DNA of 64,000 nucleotides from an uncultured Alphaproteobacteria bacterium (lineage in GTDB: Bacteria; Pseudomonadota; Alphaproteobacteria; Methylaequorales; Methylaequoraceae): positions 66,682-130,681 of the forward strand of contig CABZJY010000001.1 of the NCBI GenBank assembly GCA_902526175.1. Reading direction: 5' to 3'. The notes under the pieces were generated by a model. The model ran no database searches and was not told the origin of the DNA. It saw only the letters and a program-made list of their open reading frames with translations. Below are positions 50,354 through 60,166 of this stretch, piece by piece (positions within the stretch are counted from its first letter, which is position 1; the number at the start of each line of letters is the position of its first letter). Position numbers and translations under genes: made by a program.

Positions 50354-50449
50354 TAAAACTTTTTTGTTTAAAAAAACAAATACAAAAATAATATTCTTTA
50401 ATTTTTTTTTTTTTTATATATTCTTAAGGTGCTGATTTTTCAGCTATAG

Positions 50450-50720
50450 CAATAAATGTTTGATGAGGAATCGAGGCGGACCCGGGGGCGGTACCCGGCG
50501 CCTCCACCAAAGTTTAAGGGGGCGATATAGGATCGACGTGCGTGGAATTATCAAAACTTTGCTCGGTGTAGTTCCGTCGTTATTGGACTAAAACATAATA
50601 AGTGCCAACGATAATGAAATGGTACTCGCTGCTTAAATATTAAGTAAGCGCGGCTGTGAGACGCCGGGCAACAGAAGTCTCATCGGCAAGGGCGGGCAAT
50701 TGTTCGCCCTTGTTTGTTTT
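50450..50720 (+). ncRNA. ssrA: Two-piece (circularly permuted) tmRNA; the 5' boundary is approximate
   Basis: Acceptor piece ends ...CCGGG-GGCGGTA-CCCGG-CGCCTCC-A-CCA at 50509. The coding piece starts GGGGGCG at 50518 and pairs with CGCCTCC, including a G3:U pair. Tag ORF 50604-50636 GCC AAC GAT AAT GAA ATG GTA CTC GCT GCT TAA encodes ANDNEMVLAA. CTCATCG (50679-50685) pairs with TGATGAG (50461-50467). Ends in a hairpin plus a T-run. Confidence 0.85.
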
Positions 50721-50832
50721 AGGCACAGTCACAAAGGGTTTCAGAGGATTCACTCTTCAACAAATAAGGGAAACAAAAGTGCAATAAGTTCAATGCACTT
50801 TCAATGCACTTTCAATGCACTCTTGTTTGTTC
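50672..50832 (+). repeat. Module M0 (attL-like): native ssrA left side, then core, terminator and right arm with 3x CAATGCAC
   Basis: Core 50672-50720. Right arm AGGCACAGTCACAAAGGGTTTCAGAGGATTCACTC... CAATGCAC at 50791, 50802 and 50813. Ends TCTTGTTTGTTC. Confidence 0.85.
50688..50720 (+). terminator. Rho-independent terminator of ssrA
   Basis: AAGGGCG-GGCAATTGTT-CGCCCTT followed by GTTTGTTTT. Identical copies lie at 53894-53926, 55823-55855 and 57385-57417. Confidence 0.75.
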
Positions 50833-50835
50833 TTT

Positions 50836-52038
50836 TTAATCATTAAGTTCAATAACACGATGGAATTTAAACAATAATTTTTTATGTTTAGGTTTTATTT
50901 TCCATAGAAAATCGTAACCCTTTTTTTTAATAAAATTTTGCCACCCATCTATTTTTACCCATAAAAGATAATCTAACGTAATATCTCCTGTCTCTAACAA
51001 AGTAAAAAAGTTGGTGGAATCTATAGATCCAGTATGTGTTAATGTTTTATAATGAAAACTTTCATTTTCTGATCGCTTCTGACCTGAGGTAATTGCCTTT
51101 ATCCAAAATGTCTCTTTATGTTTCTCCTCTAGTTTTTGGATAAGTTCACTTTTCAACCAGGCTACATCTTCTTCAATAATATTATTAGGTTGGTAGACCT
51201 GTAAGACTTTGTCATCTTTAATATCTAATCTCAAATCATGAGAATTTTTTTTTATTGCACTAATAGTATTGAAGATAACTTTAAAATGATATTTATCACT
51301 TGGTTTACCCCTTTTTTCTACAATGTCTTCTGAACTTTTAAGATTACTGATATTCCAATTTGGAACTTTAGAAAATAAAGTATCTCTAGTTTTAAAATCA
51401 TTTCTACTTGTTTTTATCTCTATTCCTTTATAATCAGGTTTGCCTGAACTATTGGGTTTAATGCCACATAGATTTTCAAATGTTAGACCAATACCTGTAT
51501 CACCTGCTTTAATTGTTTTTACAAATCCCAGTTTTGATATTTCCTTACATTTATCTAAAAGTTCATTTGAAAATTGAGAATAGATAACATTTTTTTTTAT
51601 TAACTCATTAACCCTTTTATCCGTTGAATTAAATAAATTTTCTAAACTAGAAGAACTACAATTAATTACTATTAACTTTTTATCACTTGCCATTAATGCT
51701 AATAAATCTGTAGGTTTTGAATATTTTGATAAGTTATAAATCCATATTCTTGGGTCACCATTTTTGGTATGAGGTCTGTAAAATGAAGTTTTTGTTTTAA
51801 TAATCTCATTTTTTGAAAATAAAAAAGTTTCTGAAATTTTTTTATGCTCCTCACCTTGTTTTTGCGAATGATAATCATGAATTTTATTTTCTTTTAAAAA
51901 ATCTCTAACTGAATGAGTTGCATCTATAATAGATTTACTAATAGCAGTTTCTGTGGGTACTAAAAAAGTAACCTGCTTATCATACCTTTTAAAAACATCT
52001 AATGTCTCAGTTATATTTTTGTTCGAAATAGAAAGCAT
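50836..52038 (-). CDS. Putative type II restriction endonuclease: MutH/MvaI/BcnI-like C-terminal nuclease domain plus an unknown N-terminal domain of about 170 aa (cassette A)
   Basis: GDTGIGLTFENLCGIKPNSSGKPDYKGIEIKTSR matches the G..G...E..G....PD-x4-E-x-K pattern of that nuclease family. Lies immediately downstream of a C5-MTase. Confidence 0.55.
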   Translation of the reverse strand: MLSISNKNITETLDVFKRYDKQVTFLVPTETAISKSIIDATHSVRDFLKENKIHDYHSQKQGEEHKKISETFLFSKNEIIKTKTSFYRPHTKNGDPRIWIYNLSKYSKPTDLLALMASDKKLIVINCSSSSLENLFNSTDKRVNELIKKNVIYSQFSNELLDKCKEISKLGFVKTIKAGDTGIGLTFENLCGIKPNSSGKPDYKGIEIKTSRNDFKTRDTLFSKVPNWNISNLKSSEDIVEKRGKPSDKYHFKVIFNTISAIKKNSHDLRLDIKDDKVLQVYQPNNIIEEDVAWLKSELIQKLEEKHKETFWIKAITSGQKRSENESFHYKTLTHTGSIDSTNFFTLLETGDITLDYLLWVKIDGWQNFIKKKGYDFLWKIKPKHKKLLFKFHRVIELND

Positions 52039-52051
52039 AAAACTATTTGAT

Positions 52052-53326
52052 TTAACTTATTTCATTTCTTAAAATTAAATTTTTAAAAAATTTTCCAATT
52101 TCGTAGGCAAGTTTTGGAGGCACTGCATTTCCTATTTGTGTATATTTTGGAACCTCTCTATCAAAAATAGATGTTCTTGGATTCCCTGCCCGCCTTATTC
52201 CACCTGTGGTTCTTTTTCCGTAAAATTTATACCAATCTGGAAATGTTTGTATTCTTGCCATCTCTCTGACAGTGATTGATCGTGGTTGAGAATAATGAAC
52301 AAAATCGTCTGGCAATGAACAAGTTGTTATCGAAGGTCCACTATTACTCCAAACTTTTGGTAATACTCTTTGAGCAAATTTTTTTGTCTTTAATTCTTCG
52401 GGTATTTTGCCATTATTTTTAATCATAAAATTGAATCTCTTGATAACAGTCTCGCTATGTCTACTATACTGTTGTTCTGATAGATCATTCAAATAACTTG
52501 AATTTCCGTTATTTTTTGACCTAAACATTTTTTGCCATTTATTTTGGGGTGCTTTACTATAAAATTTTGACTCTCCACCGTATTCAAAATCCTTATCTAC
52601 AAGGTCAGACAGAATTTCCTCAATATTAGGATAATCATTGGTTGGTTTTGGAAGAAACCCACCCTCAATTGCATCGATATTCTCTCGATTAACATCCTTA
52701 AAATAATTTTTGTTTAAACCTACTAGTATAACCCTTGGTCTATTTTGGGGAACACCATAATCCTTTGCATGAAGTAATTTATACTTGATTATATAATTAG
52801 GAATTTCTGTAAAAGTATTTAACACATCGTTGAAGATTTCACCTTTGATACCATTCTTTGTCCATCTTGCACTCAATAAACCTCTTACATTTTCAAATAA
52901 AAAAATTTTTGGTTGAATCTTAAAAATCATATATGCCATATCTTGATAAAGATGATTTGAAGGTAATTGAATCTTATCTACGGAATAAGATCGTCTAATT
53001 CCTATTCCAGAGAAACCTTGACACGGTGGTCCACCTACCAATAAATCAACAGGTGTATCTTTTAGATCAAGGTTTAGGTTTTTTTTTATTTCTGACTTAA
53101 ATTTTTCAAAAAATTTCTCATCACTAACAACATCTTTGATGTCATTTGAATTTAATTTTTTTCTCAAATACGGAAATTGATTATCTCTATTGATCAAATA
53201 AGATTCCAATGCATCATTATTAAGTTCATTTACATATATTGGAATAAAACCTGCTTGTTCTAAACCTAACGAGAGTCCTCCACAACCTGCAAATAAATCA
53301 ATTAGAGTAAATTTTTTTTTAGTCAT
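52052..53326 (-). CDS. DNA (cytosine-5)-methyltransferase (cassette A)
   Basis: Motif I DLFAGCGG, IV GGPPCQGFS, VI FENV, VIII PQNRPRV and X GNAVPP. Confidence 0.9.
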   Translation of the reverse strand: MTKKKFTLIDLFAGCGGLSLGLEQAGFIPIYVNELNNDALESYLINRDNQFPYLRKKLNSNDIKDVVSDEKFFEKFKSEIKKNLNLDLKDTPVDLLVGGPPCQGFSGIGIRRSYSVDKIQLPSNHLYQDMAYMIFKIQPKIFLFENVRGLLSARWTKNGIKGEIFNDVLNTFTEIPNYIIKYKLLHAKDYGVPQNRPRVILVGLNKNYFKDVNRENIDAIEGGFLPKPTNDYPNIEEILSDLVDKDFEYGGESKFYSKAPQNKWQKMFRSKNNGNSSYLNDLSEQQYSRHSETVIKRFNFMIKNNGKIPEELKTKKFAQRVLPKVWSNSGPSITTCSLPDDFVHYSQPRSITVREMARIQTFPDWYKFYGKRTTGGIRRAGNPRTSIFDREVPKYTQIGNAVPPKLAYEIGKFFKNLILRNEIS

Positions 53327-53770: not shown

Positions 53771-54037
53771 GTCCGTGCAGAAGTCGTGCAGAAAATGACC
53801 TCATTTTCAATGCACTTTTCAATGCACTATTTTCAAAACCCCAAGAAATAAAGGGTTTTAGACCAAACACCGAGACACAGAAGTCTCATCGGCAAGGGCG
53901 GGCAATTGTTCGCCCTTGTTTGTTTTAAGCACAGTCACAAAGGGTTTCAGAGGACTCACTCATCACAAATAAGGGAAATAATAGTGCAATAAAGTACAGA
54001 CACTTTACAGACACTTTACAGACACTTTTGTTTGTTC
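53771..54037 (+). repeat. Module M1 (complete attP-like unit): left arm with 2x CAATGCAC, core, terminator, right arm with 3x TACAGACAC
   Basis: GTCCGTGCAGAAGTCGTGCAGAAAATGAC... CAATGCAC at 53808 and 53820. Core 53878-53926. TACAGACAC at 53995, 54006 and 54017. Ends TTTTGTTTGTTC. Confidence 0.85.
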
Positions 54038-55697: not shown

Positions 55698-55972
55698 TAG
55701 TCTGTGCAGAAGTCGTGCAGAAAATGACATCAATTTACAGACACTTTTACAGACACTTTTTAAGAACTCCGCAGAAACAGTGGGTCTTAGACCAAACACC
55801 GAGACACAGAAGTCTCATCGGCAAGGGCGGGCAATTGTTCGCCCTTGTTTGTTTTAGCGAAACTCACAAAGGGTTTCAGAGGATTCACTCAACAGAAAAT
55901 AAGGGAAAATAAAACGAGTAAAAGTGCAGACACACGCAGACACTAATGAGTGTTTTATATTTGTTCTATATG
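55698..55972 (+). repeat. Module M2: left arm with 2x TACAGACAC, core, terminator, right arm with 2x GCAGACAC
   Basis: TAGTCTGTGCAGAAGTCGTGCAGAAAATGAC... TACAGACAC at 55736 and 55748. Core 55807-55855. GCAGACAC at 55926 and 55936. Confidence 0.85.
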
Positions 55973-56054: not shown

Positions 56055-57218
56055 ATGTATAAAACATCTTATTATGATGATTTTAAATGTATTGGATCAG
56101 AATGTCCTAATTCATGTTGCGTAGGTTGGGAGATAGATCTTGATATTAAAACTTTTCAAAAATATAGAGACTTGCATGATAGTAACATAAATAAATGCAT
56201 TTCTGTGAATCAAAAACCAACATATGACAAATTCGCAAAAATTAAAAATGTCAAGGATCAAAGATGTTCTTTTCTAGACAAAAATAATCTTTGTAATATT
56301 CAAAAAAAATATTCAGAAAAACTTCTATCTCCAACATGTTCAAATTTTCCAAGGCGGAAAGTTGATTTTGGGTCTAAACAATTGTCATCATGTTTACTAA
56401 GTTGTCCTGAAATATCGAGAATTTTTTTTGCAGACAATGAAGAATTTAAAATCATTGATGATGAGAAAAAATTAGTTGATACAAATTTAAAGATTATTCC
56501 TGACGAATTTAGGAACAATCTTTATGCAGTGTCTGGAGAAAGAGTCTTTAATTTCCTATATAAGTTATATAACAGTAGTGATATATCTCTAGAAAAATGT
56601 TTGATGATCACAAATCAAATTATTAACGAATTTTCTAATAAAAAAATAGAACCTCACGAACTTAATGAAGTTTTTAAGTATATAAAAAGTTTTTTTTTAA
56701 ATCATAAAATTGAAAAAAAAATAGATACAGAAATGCAACTAAACTTCTTAAAGAAATTTTTTAGATGTTTTCTAAACAAGAAAATTAATAATAAACTTAG
56801 TGAGTTAATTAACAAACTCTATGCAGATTGTTTTTTAAACAGAGACTTAAAAAAAATTAAATTATTATACGAAAAAAACAAATTACATAATTTCAATCAA
56901 TTTCTAATAAAACATCCAAATATATTTAAAAAATTTTTTATACATGAGTTCTTCGGTAAAACTCAATTGCTCACTAATGAAGATTTTGACTCTAATGACG
57001 GTTTTTATTTAATTTTTTTTATAGCATTGGTCTCTAAACTAATCATAATTTTAAATACTTTGTATAAAGACAAAATAGTCGTTGAGGATTTTATTGAGGT
57101 TATTTCTTTGGTCTCTAGATATTATGGTGGAAAAGATAATCTTGATAAAGACGAAAAAGAATTAGTATCTAAAGATAATCAAACCTTTGTGAATCTTTTT
57201 TATCTATTTTTTGGGTAA
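56055..57218 (+). CDS. FliB-like (flagellin lysine-N-methylase family) Cys-cluster protein (cassette C)
   Basis: The N-terminus YYDDFKCIGSECPNSCCVGWEIDLDIKTFQKYR matches the F.CIG..C...CC.GW.I..D..T..KY signature I recall for FliB/YkgJ-type Cys-cluster proteins. Confidence 0.55.
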   Translation: MYKTSYYDDFKCIGSECPNSCCVGWEIDLDIKTFQKYRDLHDSNINKCISVNQKPTYDKFAKIKNVKDQRCSFLDKNNLCNIQKKYSEKLLSPTCSNFPRRKVDFGSKQLSSCLLSCPEISRIFFADNEEFKIIDDEKKLVDTNLKIIPDEFRNNLYAVSGERVFNFLYKLYNSSDISLEKCLMITNQIINEFSNKKIEPHELNEVFKYIKSFFLNHKIEKKIDTEMQLNFLKKFFRCFLNKKINNKLSELINKLYADCFLNRDLKKIKLLYEKNKLHNFNQFLIKHPNIFKKFFIHEFFGKTQLLTNEDFDSNDGFYLIFFIALVSKLIIILNTLYKDKIVVEDFIEVISLVSRYYGGKDNLDKDEKELVSKDNQTFVNLFYLFFG

Positions 57219-57228
57219 AAAACTAAAG

Positions 57229-57517
57229 AAAAATGTTCCCAGATTACTATGGTTAAAAGTAAGTTCGTTCAGAAGTCGTTCTTAAAAAATAGAAAAACGC
57301 AGACACAAACGCAGACACTATTTTCAAAACCCTCAGAAATTAAGGGTTTTAGACCAAACACCGAGACACAGAAGTCTCATCGGCAAGGGCGGGCAATTGT
57401 TCGCCCTTGTTTGTTTTAGGGAGACTCACAAAGGGTTTCAGAGGATTAACTCTTCAACAAATAAGGGAAACAATAGTGCAATAAAGTACAGACACTTTAC
57501 AGACACTCTACAGACAC
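57229..57517 (+). repeat. Module M3: extended left arm with 2x ACGCAGACAC, core, terminator, right arm with 3x TACAGACAC
   Basis: AAAAATGTTCCCAGATTACTATGGTTAAAAGTAAGTTCGTTCAGAAGTCGTTC... ACGCAGACAC at 57297 and 57309. Core 57369-57417. TACAGACAC at 57487, 57498 and 57509. Confidence 0.85.
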
Positions 57518-57581
57518 TTTTTAAGAATACCAAGAAACAAAGGGACTTAAGTCATTTACCAAGACACAGGAATCTCATCTA
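57518..57581 (+). repeat. Module M3b: decayed left arm plus left half of core only (right end of the empty cassette D)
   Basis: TTTTTAAGAATACCAAGAAACAAAGGGACTTAAGTCATTTACCAAGACACAGGAATCTCATCT aligns with the M2 left arm TTTTTAAGAACTCCGCAGAAACAGTGGGTCTTAGACCAAACACCGAGACACAGAAGTCTCATCGG. Confidence 0.65.
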
Positions 57582-57753
57582 ATTTTTTGAAGTTTAAAAT
57601 GAAATTTGTGTCAATTTTTTCAATGTTAGTATTGAAATAACCCACCTTATAGATTGCTCCAAATTAAAGTATTTCTTAGATTTCAGATTTGATCATTATT
57701 TAAAATTGGCAAGAAACTTTGTTTAATGCTAATTTTCAATTTGAGATTTTAAT

Positions 57754-58509
57754 ATGCCAAAATATGAAATTAAATCTAAAACAAATAATTTAACATTCAA
57801 AAGATCAGATGGATCCCTTGGAGTAGTAGAAATTAGATTTTTTATTGAAGCAATTAAAGAATTTAACAGAATTATAAGAATTTTTGATGATGTAGAAATC
57901 CCGATTGGAGATATTTTAGGACTCAGGAATCTCAGTGCCTTCGTAGGAGAAGTTTTTAATCGATCAGTAAAAAAAATATCGGGTGGGTATATACAAAATA
58001 ATCCCCATCAAGATGGTTATCCCGACCTATTGATTATGGATAATATAGGAAAAAACTTATGGGACAAATTATCATCTCAACACCACGAAAAAGAACCTTT
58101 TAGTCCTTTTGTAGCGGGCGGAATAGAGGTAAAAGCAACATGTGGAGATCTTAAAAGTGGAAAATGGTTTACCGAAAAAAATATTCCTAAACCCATCATT
58201 GGTGACCAAAGATTGGAATGGGTTACGGGTTATAATTGGAAAGCACATCATAGAGAAACAAATAATCTAATTGGTTTGATATGGGATTTTGTAGAAAGAA
58301 AACCCACTATTGTTAGCATAATGTATTCTAATAATCTTAAGGAAGAAGATTGGGGCAAGACTGTAACTCCAAAAGAAGGAGGTGGAAGAACAACTTCTGT
58401 TAGTATAATGAATAAGATGGGAATTAAAAAAATGAAAGATGGAATAATATTATTGATAAATGACCAAAAATATTCAGTCCCTTTCATTAAAAAATTAAGT
58501 AAATATTAA
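57754..58509 (+). CDS. Putative type II restriction endonuclease, PD-(D/E)XK fold (cassette E)
   Basis: GYPDLLIMD ... GGIEVKATCG (PD...ExK). Convergent with the adjacent C5-MTase and overlapping it by 15 nt. Confidence 0.55.
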   Translation: MPKYEIKSKTNNLTFKRSDGSLGVVEIRFFIEAIKEFNRIIRIFDDVEIPIGDILGLRNLSAFVGEVFNRSVKKISGGYIQNNPHQDGYPDLLIMDNIGKNLWDKLSSQHHEKEPFSPFVAGGIEVKATCGDLKSGKWFTEKNIPKPIIGDQRLEWVTGYNWKAHHRETNNLIGLIWDFVERKPTIVSIMYSNNLKEEDWGKTVTPKEGGGRTTSVSIMNKMGIKKMKDGIILLINDQKYSVPFIKKLSKY

Positions 58510-59817
58510 TTGCTTTTGAATTAATGTTTCATTCAAGTCAAAGTTTTTCGAAGCAATACTTTGTAAATTTTTTAAAAGTATTTCTATGATTAATGGAGGA
58601 ACGCTCTCGCCAAGTGTGTCTCTTATAGTTGTTAGTTTAGCATCAACACCTTTGCATGTTTCAAAATAAAAATCTTCATTTGATATTGTATGTAATAAGC
58701 ATGCCTCTCTTATTGAAAGTGACCTATTTTGCTCTGGGTGTATCTTATTATCACTACAAACATAAGGAAAATTTCGAGTTATAGCAGAAGCAGGCAAGTC
58801 CCAATCCATTCTTTTATAAGCACTTGTAAAACCAGTCATAATCTGAATTTTTCCATTTTTTTTAATTGATGGTCTTGGAAGTAAAGCATTACAATTTTTA
58901 CAATAAACTGGAGTATCTCTTGAAGACTTATTAACTCCAAATGAATTTTTATTGCTTGAATGAAGTTTATTTTTGTTAAATCCACAACTTACACATTGAT
59001 TATCAAAAGCAGATTTGTTTAAGGGAGTATTGCTTACCCACCAAAATTTCATTTCATCTAATTTAGGCACTTTATGGAGAGGATCATTAAAGGAATTAGT
59101 TTTAGTCTTACCATCTAATTTTTCTAGACTACCAATTACATCCCTAACAGTTACCCATTTCATTAATCCTTCATTAGAGTTTTTTGAATGTGTCTTCGGG
59201 GGAAAAAAAGAACCATAATTCATTTTATGTTTCTTTATAAGGTCACTCCTAGTAGCAATAGTAATCAATCTCAATCGACGCTGGGGTATACCATAATCAG
59301 CAAATTCTATGACTTTTGGTTCAACTTCATATTCTGTAAGAGTATTTTTTATTATCTCAATAATAGGCAATATTTTTCCATCAAAAGGAATACTTGTATT
59401 GATCATTTCTGATACATTTTCAAAAATTACCGTGGTTGGTTTTAATTCTTTTATAATTTCTAATGCAGGTATTATTAATAAATTTCTAGGATCGATTTTA
59501 GGTCTTCTACCGGCATTTATTTCTGCTAAGAGTTTACCTCTTCCATTTTTAGACATTCCTTGACACGGAGGGGTAACAAGAGCGTAATCTAATTTATGTC
59601 CATTAAGTTTTAATAAAGTTTGTTGTATAATTTCTGATTTCTTTTCATTAATGTCACCCTCAATTAAGTGTGTTTCTGGAAAATTTCGCCGAAATAACTT
59701 ACATCTATCTTCAAGTAACTCATTTGCAACGATAGTCTCAATATTACATCTTTTTAGTGCTATATCACCTATTCCAGAGGATGAAAATAAACTAATCGCT
59801 TTATATCTATTATCCAT
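58495..59817 (-). CDS. DNA (cytosine-5)-methyltransferase (cassette E)
   Basis: Motif I LFSSSGIGD, IV TPPCQGMS, VI FENVSEM, VIII PQRRLRL and X GESVPP. Confidence 0.85.
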   Translation of the reverse strand: MDNRYKAISLFSSSGIGDIALKRCNIETIVANELLEDRCKLFRRNFPETHLIEGDINEKKSEIIQQTLLKLNGHKLDYALVTPPCQGMSKNGRGKLLAEINAGRRPKIDPRNLLIIPALEIIKELKPTTVIFENVSEMINTSIPFDGKILPIIEIIKNTLTEYEVEPKVIEFADYGIPQRRLRLITIATRSDLIKKHKMNYGSFFPPKTHSKNSNEGLMKWVTVRDVIGSLEKLDGKTKTNSFNDPLHKVPKLDEMKFWWVSNTPLNKSAFDNQCVSCGFNKNKLHSSNKNSFGVNKSSRDTPVYCKNCNALLPRPSIKKNGKIQIMTGFTSAYKRMDWDLPASAITRNFPYVCSDNKIHPEQNRSLSIREACLLHTISNEDFYFETCKGVDAKLTTIRDTLGESVPPLIIEILLKNLQSIASKNFDLNETLIQKQLIFT

Positions 59818-59983
59818 TTTGATATCAAAAACTATATCTATATAATTATAAACTAATCAATTATTTTTATCATACATCGTTCATCTTCTTTTTCAAACTA
59901 CACTAACATCTTTGTCCGCCGAAGTTATTAAAAACTTTTACCAAGATGTAGGAAATCAAAAACAAATGGTAAATGACCACATA

Positions 59984-60166
59984 AAATTGTTCCCAGATTA
60001 CTTTGGTTAAAAGTAAGTTTGTTCAGAAGTCGTTCTTAAAAAATAGAAAAACGCAGACACTATTTTCAAAACCGGAAGAAATAAAGTGTTTCAGACCATA
60101 CGCCGAGACACAGAAGTCAAATCGGCAAGGGTTTGAAATTGTTAATTGTTCGCTCTTATTTGTTTT
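59984..60166 (+). repeat. Module M4 (attR-like): left arm with 1x ACGCAGACAC plus a decayed core and terminator, probably the displaced ancestral ssrA 3' end
   Basis: The left arm matches the M3 left arm from AAAATTGTTCCCAGATTACTTTGG. The core reads CAGAAGTCAAATCGGCAAGGGTTTGAAATTGTTAATTGTTCGCTCTTATTTGTTTT, with substitutions and an insertion that break the hairpin. Confidence 0.7.

Follow-up and report, generated by a model that had tools for sequence, protein, structure and literature searches.

A cargo-less junction in a stack of integrase-less cassettes at the tmRNA gene of a SAR11-like marine bacterium

Tandem genomic islands at tRNA and tmRNA genes were reportedly described by Williams in 2002 (in NAR) and again in 2003 ('Traffic at the tmRNA gene'). 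In additive islands, elements insert one after another at the 3' end of a target gene; every insertion adds a partial gene copy and pushes older units distally, with degenerate remnants and extra partial gene copies scattered within. In Prochlorococcus, tandem elements are parted by partial tRNAs, and degenerate remnants are found among them (Hackl et al., bioRxiv 10.1101/2020.12.28.424599). The gMED islands of SAR11 are bounded by tRNA genes, and one of them by a tmRNA gene, with partial tRNA repeats marking the inserted cassettes (PMC11796062). The island fGI-2 of the Methylophilaceae carries repeats of a tRNA-Lys end (PMC10872708).

We analyzed a stretch of 64,000 nucleotides from an uncultured alphaproteobacterium (the window). 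Between 50.4 and 60.2 kb, small integrase-less cassettes are stacked in tandem at the 3' end of the ssrA (tmRNA) gene, forming an additive island, and the host is a SAR11-like marine bacterium. That the cassettes are integrative is suggested by their architecture. The locus resembles additive islands in the partial gene copies left by successive insertions, in the distal position of older units, and in the remnants and extra copies within the stack. Unlike the tycheposons of Hackl et al., which have a tyrosine or serine recombinase and a replication/mobility module, the region from 50.8 to 60.2 kb contains neither. It also differs from additive islands: no unit here, and none in the arrays of 42 related genomes, contains an integrase, and the array units are very small, with long conserved arms that carry class-specific tandem motifs. 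Within the stack, a cargo-less stretch (D) adjoins a cassette (E) with restriction-modification genes, and the cargo-less stretch departs from the stray partial gene copies of additive islands in that it appears to be a fusion of arm parts.

In accretion, tandem composites form, and the loss of an internal att site welds two units together. Integrase-less DNA between functional att sites (a cis-mobilizable element, CIME) is said to be movable by the integrase of a related element, reportedly as found for ICESt1 and ICESt3 of Streptococcus thermophilus by Pavlovic in 2004 and Bellanger in 2011. By analogy, D and E may have been welded by the loss of an internal att site, and a putative helper may mobilize such units. 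The attP site of phage lambda has arm-type sites (P1, P2 and P'1–P'3) that heterobivalent tyrosine integrases contact through their N-terminal domain. The modules at ssrA are similar in layout, each being ~270–330 bp long with a central core that carries a short inverted repeat (GAGAC-N6-GTCTC), and with tandem motif copies spaced at the helical repeat (two on one arm, three on the opposite one); the putative arm sites are known from this architecture only. Unlike lambda attP, the ssrA modules combine at least 10 motif classes with one core. Like integron cassettes, the units form a stack at one chromosomal site, are small, mostly have one or two genes, and lack a recombinase of their own. Unlike in integrons, there is no IntI gene or attI, the repeat consists of the ssrA 3' end with long arms rather than an attC hairpin, and the cargo genes lie in both orientations. 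As far as the literature was searched, long arms of many classes, integrase-free arrays and reassortment at the level of arms are absent from the three reports on marine islands (Hackl et al., PMC11796062 and PMC10872708).

The cassette array downstream of ssrA

Rfam model RF01849 matched the tmRNA at 50393–50685 with 207.6 bits, the model ending one base past TCTCATC, and ARAGORN placed the gene at 50417–50727 with the tag ANDNEMVLAA. In direct orientation downstream of the intact gene, the last ~50 nt of ssrA were found again at 53.88, 55.81 and 57.37 kb. Two further copies of the ssrA end were decayed (60.1 kb) and truncated (57566–57579). The core of each "att scaffold" in the original prediction is such a copy, made up of ACAGAAGTCTCATC, which is the last 14 nt of the tmRNA, and the terminator hairpin.

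In an internal module, the left (P) arm of ~135 nt contains TGTTCCCAGATTACT, GTGCAGAAGTCGTGCAG, two motif copies and a core-proximal part, in this order. The right (P') arm of ~100 nt contains CACAAAGGGTTTCAGAGGA, AAATAAGGGAAA, and two or three motif copies. The tandem motifs, 2 + 3 per module, lie ~60 and ~100 nt off the core. The word CAGACAC had 16 matches in the 64-kb window, compared to 1.8 expected. The features of the island are listed in Table 1.

Table 1 Coordinates of ssrA, cassette cargo and module parts in the window.
Feature	Position	Strand	Basis or remark
ssrA, two-piece (permuted) alphaproteobacterial tmRNA with terminator	50393..50727	+	Rfam and ARAGORN
Cassette 1 cargo: MvaI/BcnI-type endonuclease and C5 methylase	50836–53326		
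Cassette 2 cargo: FkbM methyltransferase and small protein	cassette at 54.0–55.7 kb		
Cassette 3 cargo: FliB-like lysine methylase, single gene	56055–57218		
M3 left (P) arm, of cassette 3	57234..57367	+	alignment, repeat families, motif positions
M3 intact att core: ACAGAAGTCTCATC, terminator hairpin and T-run	57368..57418	+	letter-for-letter the same as 50671–50721
Core-proximal right (P') arm, now of the D+E unit: CACAAAGGGTTTCAGAGGA, AAATAAGGGAAA	57419..57486	+	conserved in all modules
Right-arm motif array TACAGACAC x3, putative arm-type recombinase sites	57487..57517	+	motif search, G017 comparison
Probable left (P) arm relic of another cassette, TGCAYACAC-arm type	57518..57565	+	joined to the motif array at CACTTTT
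Truncated, mutated att core ACAGGAATCTCATC (consensus ACAGAAGTCTCATC)	57566..57579	+	ends where the terminator would start
Cassette E cargo: putative endonuclease and C5 cytosine methyltransferase	57580..59987	.	
E leader	57580–57663		no match in other arrays
E putative restriction endonuclease, 251 aa	57754–58509	+	context of homologues
E C5 cytosine methyltransferase	58495–59817	-	PF00145, E = 2.6e-39
Terminal module M4: left arm (TGTTCCCAGATTACT, one CGCAGACAC) with decayed core and terminator	59988..60166	+	

Three complete cassettes in the window each had one motif class on both sides of their cargo, namely TCAATGCAC around the cargo of 50.8–53.8 kb, TACAGACAC around that of 54.0–55.7 kb and GCAGACAC around that of 55.9–57.3 kb. 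Over 22 arrays, these three cassettes included, the two motif arrays flanking a cargo were of the same class in 14 of 19 cases, compared to 5 of 15 for the arrays flanking a core. Since the classes pair across the cargo and not across the core, the unit is core, P' arm, cargo, P arm and core, and a scaffold lies where two neighboring cassettes meet. The original prediction had placed the cargo inside the motif array of an otherwise self-contained att scaffold, which inverts this order. A scaffold is thus made up of the P arm of one cassette, a core and the P' arm of its neighbor, an arrangement that fits tandem site-specific insertion at ssrA. By analogy with lambda, the short tandem arm motif is probably the arm-type site of a tyrosine integrase acting in trans, on which the cassettes would depend.

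Arrays of the same kind were present at ssrA in 35 of the 42 genomes of the family (here equivalent to the order), with up to 7 module copies. The cassette units measure 1.3–3.2 kb, with one or two genes each. A left-arm segment, GTGCAGAAGTCGTGCAGAA, at 53772–53794, 55705–55727 and 57256–57276 and at the equivalent places in relatives includes CAGAAGTC, a word that also occurs in the att core (ACAGAAGTCTC), and CAGAAGTC could be a second core-like site in each left arm. The terminator stems varied on both strands among the modules of arrays L002, L003, L008, L013, L019 and L021, the variants being GGGCGGGC...GCCC, GGGGTGGCG...CACCCC, GGGGGGGC...CCCCC and GGAGAGGCG...CTCTCC. These changes on both strands suggest that the hairpin is under selection even in internal copies. 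Six arrays from genera g11 and g5 (L007, L015, L016, L017, L019 and L020) had a TGGATTTA x2 repeat ~200 nt beyond the last module. This repeat was followed by an extra GTGCAGAAGTCGTGCAG-like segment in L016 and L019, by a weaker one in L007 and L015, and by none in L017 and L020. The TGGATTTA x2 region is a conserved distal boundary structure of the arrays.

In terms of cargo, the island is largely a defense locus, with two of the four cassettes being restriction-modification pairs that each include a C5 cytosine methylase. The cassette 3 protein matched the FliB-like flagellin lysine-N-methylase model NF038110 with 178.7 bits (cut-off 85). Its gene is found in a streamlined 1.3-Mb genome, of a kind in which flagella are not expected.

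Pfam scans of all cargo proteins from 50.8 to 60.2 kb found no recombinase and no replication or mobility genes. In the genome to which the window belongs (1.33 Mb, 83% complete), searches with PF00589 and PF00239 yielded a single XerC-like tyrosine recombinase, whose best NCBIfam match was XerC, and no serine recombinase. Across the 42 family genomes, PF00589 had no match inside any ssrA array. Its matches elsewhere in these genomes were Xer-type proteins or integrases of 377–457 aa, and the 13 integrase neighborhoods examined contained tRNA-Thr or tRNA-Ser genes or fragments, or no tRNA, and no ssrA modules. Scans of IMG/VR for the arm-core junction, the core with terminator, and the right-arm segment gave 0 matches each. 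Integration of the Xer/dif type (IMEX) was rejected: the repeats are ssrA ends, and the core is unlike a dif site on reading alone.

Five tyrosine integrases of 377–396 aa (L153 = G024:C34, L151, L152, L154 and L155) adjoin a 3' fragment of tRNA-Thr(tgt). The fragment is followed by TCACCAAGGGTTTCAG in L153 and L155 and by looser variants in the other three, and this sequence resembles the ssrA right-arm segment CTCACAAAGGGTTTCAGAGGA. Going by this resemblance, the integrases on the tRNA-Thr side may be a related lineage with another target.

Anatomy of the cargo-less junction

The junction lies downstream of the intact module M3, whose left arm contains TGTTCCCAGATTACT, the CAGAAGTCG segment, CGCAGACAC x2, and a core-proximal part. 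Beyond the M3 core, three TACAGACAC copies were located at 57487–57495, 57498–57506 and 57509–57517 (CAGACAC at 57489, 57500 and 57511). As the original prediction had noted, they run straight into left-arm sequence with no cargo in between, which reading and alignment both confirmed. The three copies are spaced at 11 nt with the spacers TT and TC, and both spacers are those of the intact TACAGACAC right arm in G017 (SAG AG-901-J22), the sole relevant match, among the matches listed, of a TACAGACAC-N2-3-TACAGACAC scan of genome contigs. With the right-arm spacing and the same spacers as in G017, 57487–57517 is taken to be the entire right-arm array. In G017 the array is followed by TTTTGTTTGTTC, and in the window by the left-arm type TTTTTAAGAA instead.

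The left-arm sequence at 57518–57579 (the stub) reads TTTTTAAGAATACCAAGAAACAAAGGGACTTAAGTCATTTACCAAGACACAGGAATCTCATC, and its core-proximal sequence is of the AGTCATTTACC type. Compared to the M2 left arm (55758–55820), the stub was identical at 46 of 62 positions, with a local alignment score of 42. Dinucleotide-preserving shuffles (n = 2000) of this alignment had a mean score of 14.1, a standard deviation of 2.3 and a maximum of 29 (z = 12), and none reached 42, showing that the stub resembles left arms beyond chance. The M1 arm matched equally well (45/61, z = 10). Closer relatives of the stub were found in other genomes. Its 49-nt core-proximal arm was 84–88% identical to arms in G026, G008, G040 and G024, where the motifs are TGCACACAC, TGCATACAC or TGCGCACAC, but only 72–78% identical to arms with (T/G)ACAGACAC or TGCAGACAC motifs (72% for M2). 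Three features of a complete module were absent before the stub, namely TGTTCCCAGATTACT, the CAGAAGTCG segment, and two motif copies at 12-nt spacing.

On its right-hand side, the stub is cut short. The truncation after the left half of the core stands as predicted, and its end moves two bases upstream from ~57581, since the similarity to arms ends at 57579, after TCTCATC. Of the 38 nt that follow, 31 mismatched the terminator consensus. A terminator scan of the + strand from 57200 to 57800 found the M3 hairpin (57382–57411) as the sole hairpin and none after the stub, and a probe for the right-arm segments CACAAAGGGTTTCAGAGGA and AAATAAGGGAAA after the stub found neither, consistent with the claim that E has no terminator and right arm of its own. 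Across 21 arrays, from 20 related genomes and the window, the terminator hairpin, counted with variants that have compensatory stem changes or small indels, follows every one of ~50 arm-core copies except the stub (57550–57579). The 21-nt core segment CCGAGACACAGAAGTCTCATC had 0 or 1 mismatch in 36 of ~47 copies, compared to 3 in the stub (CCAAGACACAGGAATCTCATC). The inverted repeat of the stub reads AAGAC-ACAGGA-ATCTC, against GAGAC-ACAGAA-GTCTC in intact cores, and is weakened by these substitutions. On this anatomy, 57487–57579 is best read as a fusion of parts of two different cassettes.

Constancy of the junction with cassette E in metagenomes

The 251-aa protein of cassette E had 1495 homologues, usually with a C5 methylase adjoining, and a phage homologue carries an endonuclease annotation. 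Homologues of the endonuclease at 72–75% identity were found in unrelated contexts without modules, and no ancestral left end of E was visible there. The closest other E-like cassette, on L143, had 94% protein identity, and its leader differs upstream of ~57664; this contig begins 127 nt upstream of the endonuclease gene, which leaves any preceding stub out of view. A comparison of the E leader (57582–57680) with other arrays gave no match.

The exact 251-aa protein was present on 21 contigs, ten of which were listed. The junction of the stub with E (...CAGGAATCTCATC|TAATTTTTTGAAG...) was identical on all nine listed contigs that reach far enough upstream, which came from nine samples, and D was never apart from E among these nine. 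When metagenomes were scanned for ACCRAGACACAGGAATCTCATC, the core variant peculiar to the stub, one contig matched (L150, MDTB01211862.1), with the same junction and E.

The surroundings of the junction were not constant. L150 was at least 99.5% identical to the window over ~57451–59990, a block of ~2.5 kb, and differed outside it. Its upstream left arm belongs to the TGCACGCAG class, compared to CGCAGACAC in the window, and its downstream left arm has TGCAACGCAC x2 and an intact core, compared to a single CGCAGACAC and a decayed core in the window. At M4, the identity of the window to the metagenome version of E breaks directly after CAGATTACT, and this right-hand break comes immediately behind the universally conserved TGTTCCCAGATTACT. 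On the 17-kb contig L164, the D+E block lies inside a longer array and both flanking cores are intact. Arms were swapped on both sides of the E cargo, with TACAGACAC vs a TTCAATACAC-hybrid array on the left and CGCAGACAC vs TGCAACGCAC arms on the right. The hybrid array is that of L167 (TARA_SAMEA6051768 scaffold_45889, positions 57–131), where the same stub and E are preceded by TTCAATACAC x2, TGCAGACAC and CAAAGACAC, and its composition suggests recombination inside the motif array.

The identical junction among changing neighbors indicates that D is not a free-standing empty cassette but an inherited part of the restriction-modification cassette E. Judging from the contigs compared, the stub and E form one block that is older than the divergence of its contexts, and its neighbors have been exchanged at conserved module segments. 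The persistence of an identical scar with one cargo through nine ocean samples, while the neighboring arms changed, provides direct evidence on the evolution of the array. In the window, where the left core is intact but the right core has decayed, the D+E unit is probably immobile.

Origin of the junction

The most probable origin of 57487–57579, and one we hold with reasonable confidence, is an old deletion scar inside the stack that has become a fixed component, apparently without function, of the composite D+E unit. A complete TACAGACAC x3 array would have been fused, within the common CACTTTT, to the last 62 nt of a different cassette's left arm with half a core, and this relic would abut the restriction-modification cargo of E at the place where the terminator should begin. 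Such a structure would take two or more rounds of breakage and joining, or else a single complex template switch. In one join, the right-arm array would have been connected to a downstream left arm at CACTTTT, with the loss of at least one cargo and probably a whole core. In the other, the foot of the terminator would have been joined into the left end of E, with the loss of the terminator and the former right arm of E. Microhomology or short-repeat recombination may have mediated these deletions. The D+E unit, which extends between the cores at 57368 and ~60100, would later have spread or recombined into arrays with other neighbors, and the joining of E to the terminal left arm at TGTTCCCAGATTACT would imply that the sequence once downstream of E was lost.

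An ancestral E whose left module is complete was not found, and the deleted material is therefore deduced rather than seen. The different leader of L143 further indicates that one simple deletion leaves part of the structure unexplained. The breakpoint on the right falls exactly at the end of the tmRNA homology, where the terminator starts, a coincidence that might point to a site-specific event and not a random one. A start of E right after a lost GCAGACAC-class right arm was also considered and dropped, as it rests on four bases only (both continue TAAT).

The original prediction had offered two versions of another history, in which E is a separate, independently truncated neighbor and D is either a single TACAGACAC-class cassette emptied between its own three-copy and two-copy arrays or a minimal att-only element. 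The motif before the stub is indeed TACAGACAC, and the left arm that matched the stub at 46 of 62 positions belongs to the intact TACAGACAC-class cassette (54.0–55.7 kb). Arrays of the same class in direct orientation are obvious substrates for deletion, and a fusion of same-class arrays is seen in G018. However, we regard this history as unlikely. The stub arm is nearer to the TGCAYACAC type (TGCACACAC/TGCATACAC/TGCGCACAC, 84–88%) than to any CAGACAC-type arm (72–78%), all motif copies have the right-arm spacing and none of the 12-nt left-arm spacing remains, and on L167 the same stub follows a TTCAATACAC-type array. Nor is D a self-contained att element: its core is incomplete and has three substitutions in 21 nt, and D never occurred without E on the nine contigs.

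A slightly weaker candidate is the capture of cargo, in which an integrase crossover of a normal left arm and core with a non-att (secondary) site beside a foreign restriction-modification module produced the boundary at 57579/57580, leaving the stub as the footprint of cargo entry. The break is only a few bases away from the putative core site GAGAC-ACAGAA-GTCTC and coincides precisely with the end of the tmRNA homology. The module-free, unrelated contexts of the E gene homologues suggest that the restriction-modification module was imported, and the leader at 57580–57663 has no match in other arrays. These observations are outweighed by the position of the break, which is ~7 nt to the right of the presumed 6–7-nt overlap region and not within it, and by its singularity, as it is the sole such junction among ~50 arm-core copies and the sole metagenome match to ACCRAGACACAGGAATCTCATC is the same E junction. 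The substitutions in the stub core would also hinder recombination, though they possibly arose later. If cargo capture were true, a new cassette would have been created by crossover and would then have spread. Taken with the arm swaps, it would make the conserved module parts the joints by which cargo passes between cassette lineages served by different integrases.

It is highly improbable that the stub was kept because cassette E uses it, for example in transcription (promoter or operator region), as an RNA element, or in recombination. Its sequence is identical in all nine contigs and it lies 174 nt upstream of the endonuclease gene, but with the whole 2.5-kb block at least 99.5% identical this conservation is uninformative, no promoter-like site was found on the + strand from 57200 to 57800, and the E-like cassette on L143 manages without the leader 57580–57663. 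As a deletion scar, the sequence is probably functionless, because the M3 terminator 170 nt upstream still insulates E, because the + strand lacks a promoter-like site, and because the stub is no more conserved than the remainder of the block.

The scar reflects ordinary decay in a cassette system that is itself modestly novel. Taken alone it is a dead remnant, and its value is that of a dated marker of array evolution; the wider system of integrase-less units with class-specific arm motifs is more interesting than the scar itself. In these streamlined marine bacteria, cassettes at ssrA undergo deletion, are welded into composite units and are re-assorted at conserved module segments, besides being added singly by site-specific integration. 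This is relevant to the question of how a flexible gene pool is maintained in genomes that are said to be free of mobile elements.

Module parts repeated in direct orientation favor deletions, whose products recur in G018, in G028, and at the right end of E, in agreement with the earlier proposal that the array decays as well as gains. In G018 (L010, G018:C13, 6464–6540), a left arm with the CAGAAGTCG segment and TGCAACGCAC copies runs directly into the end of a right-arm array (TTTTGTTTGTTC). The core, the terminator and the proximal part of the right arm are all deleted there, and two TGCAACGCAC-class cassettes are welded, which makes this junction the reciprocal of the scar. At the distal end of the G028 array, a second cargo-less junction was found (L006, G028:C7, 10779–11010), where a complete left arm comes within ~50 nt after a right arm (TACCACA x2); this left arm has one CACAGACAC copy, and the terminator of the core behind it is shortened.
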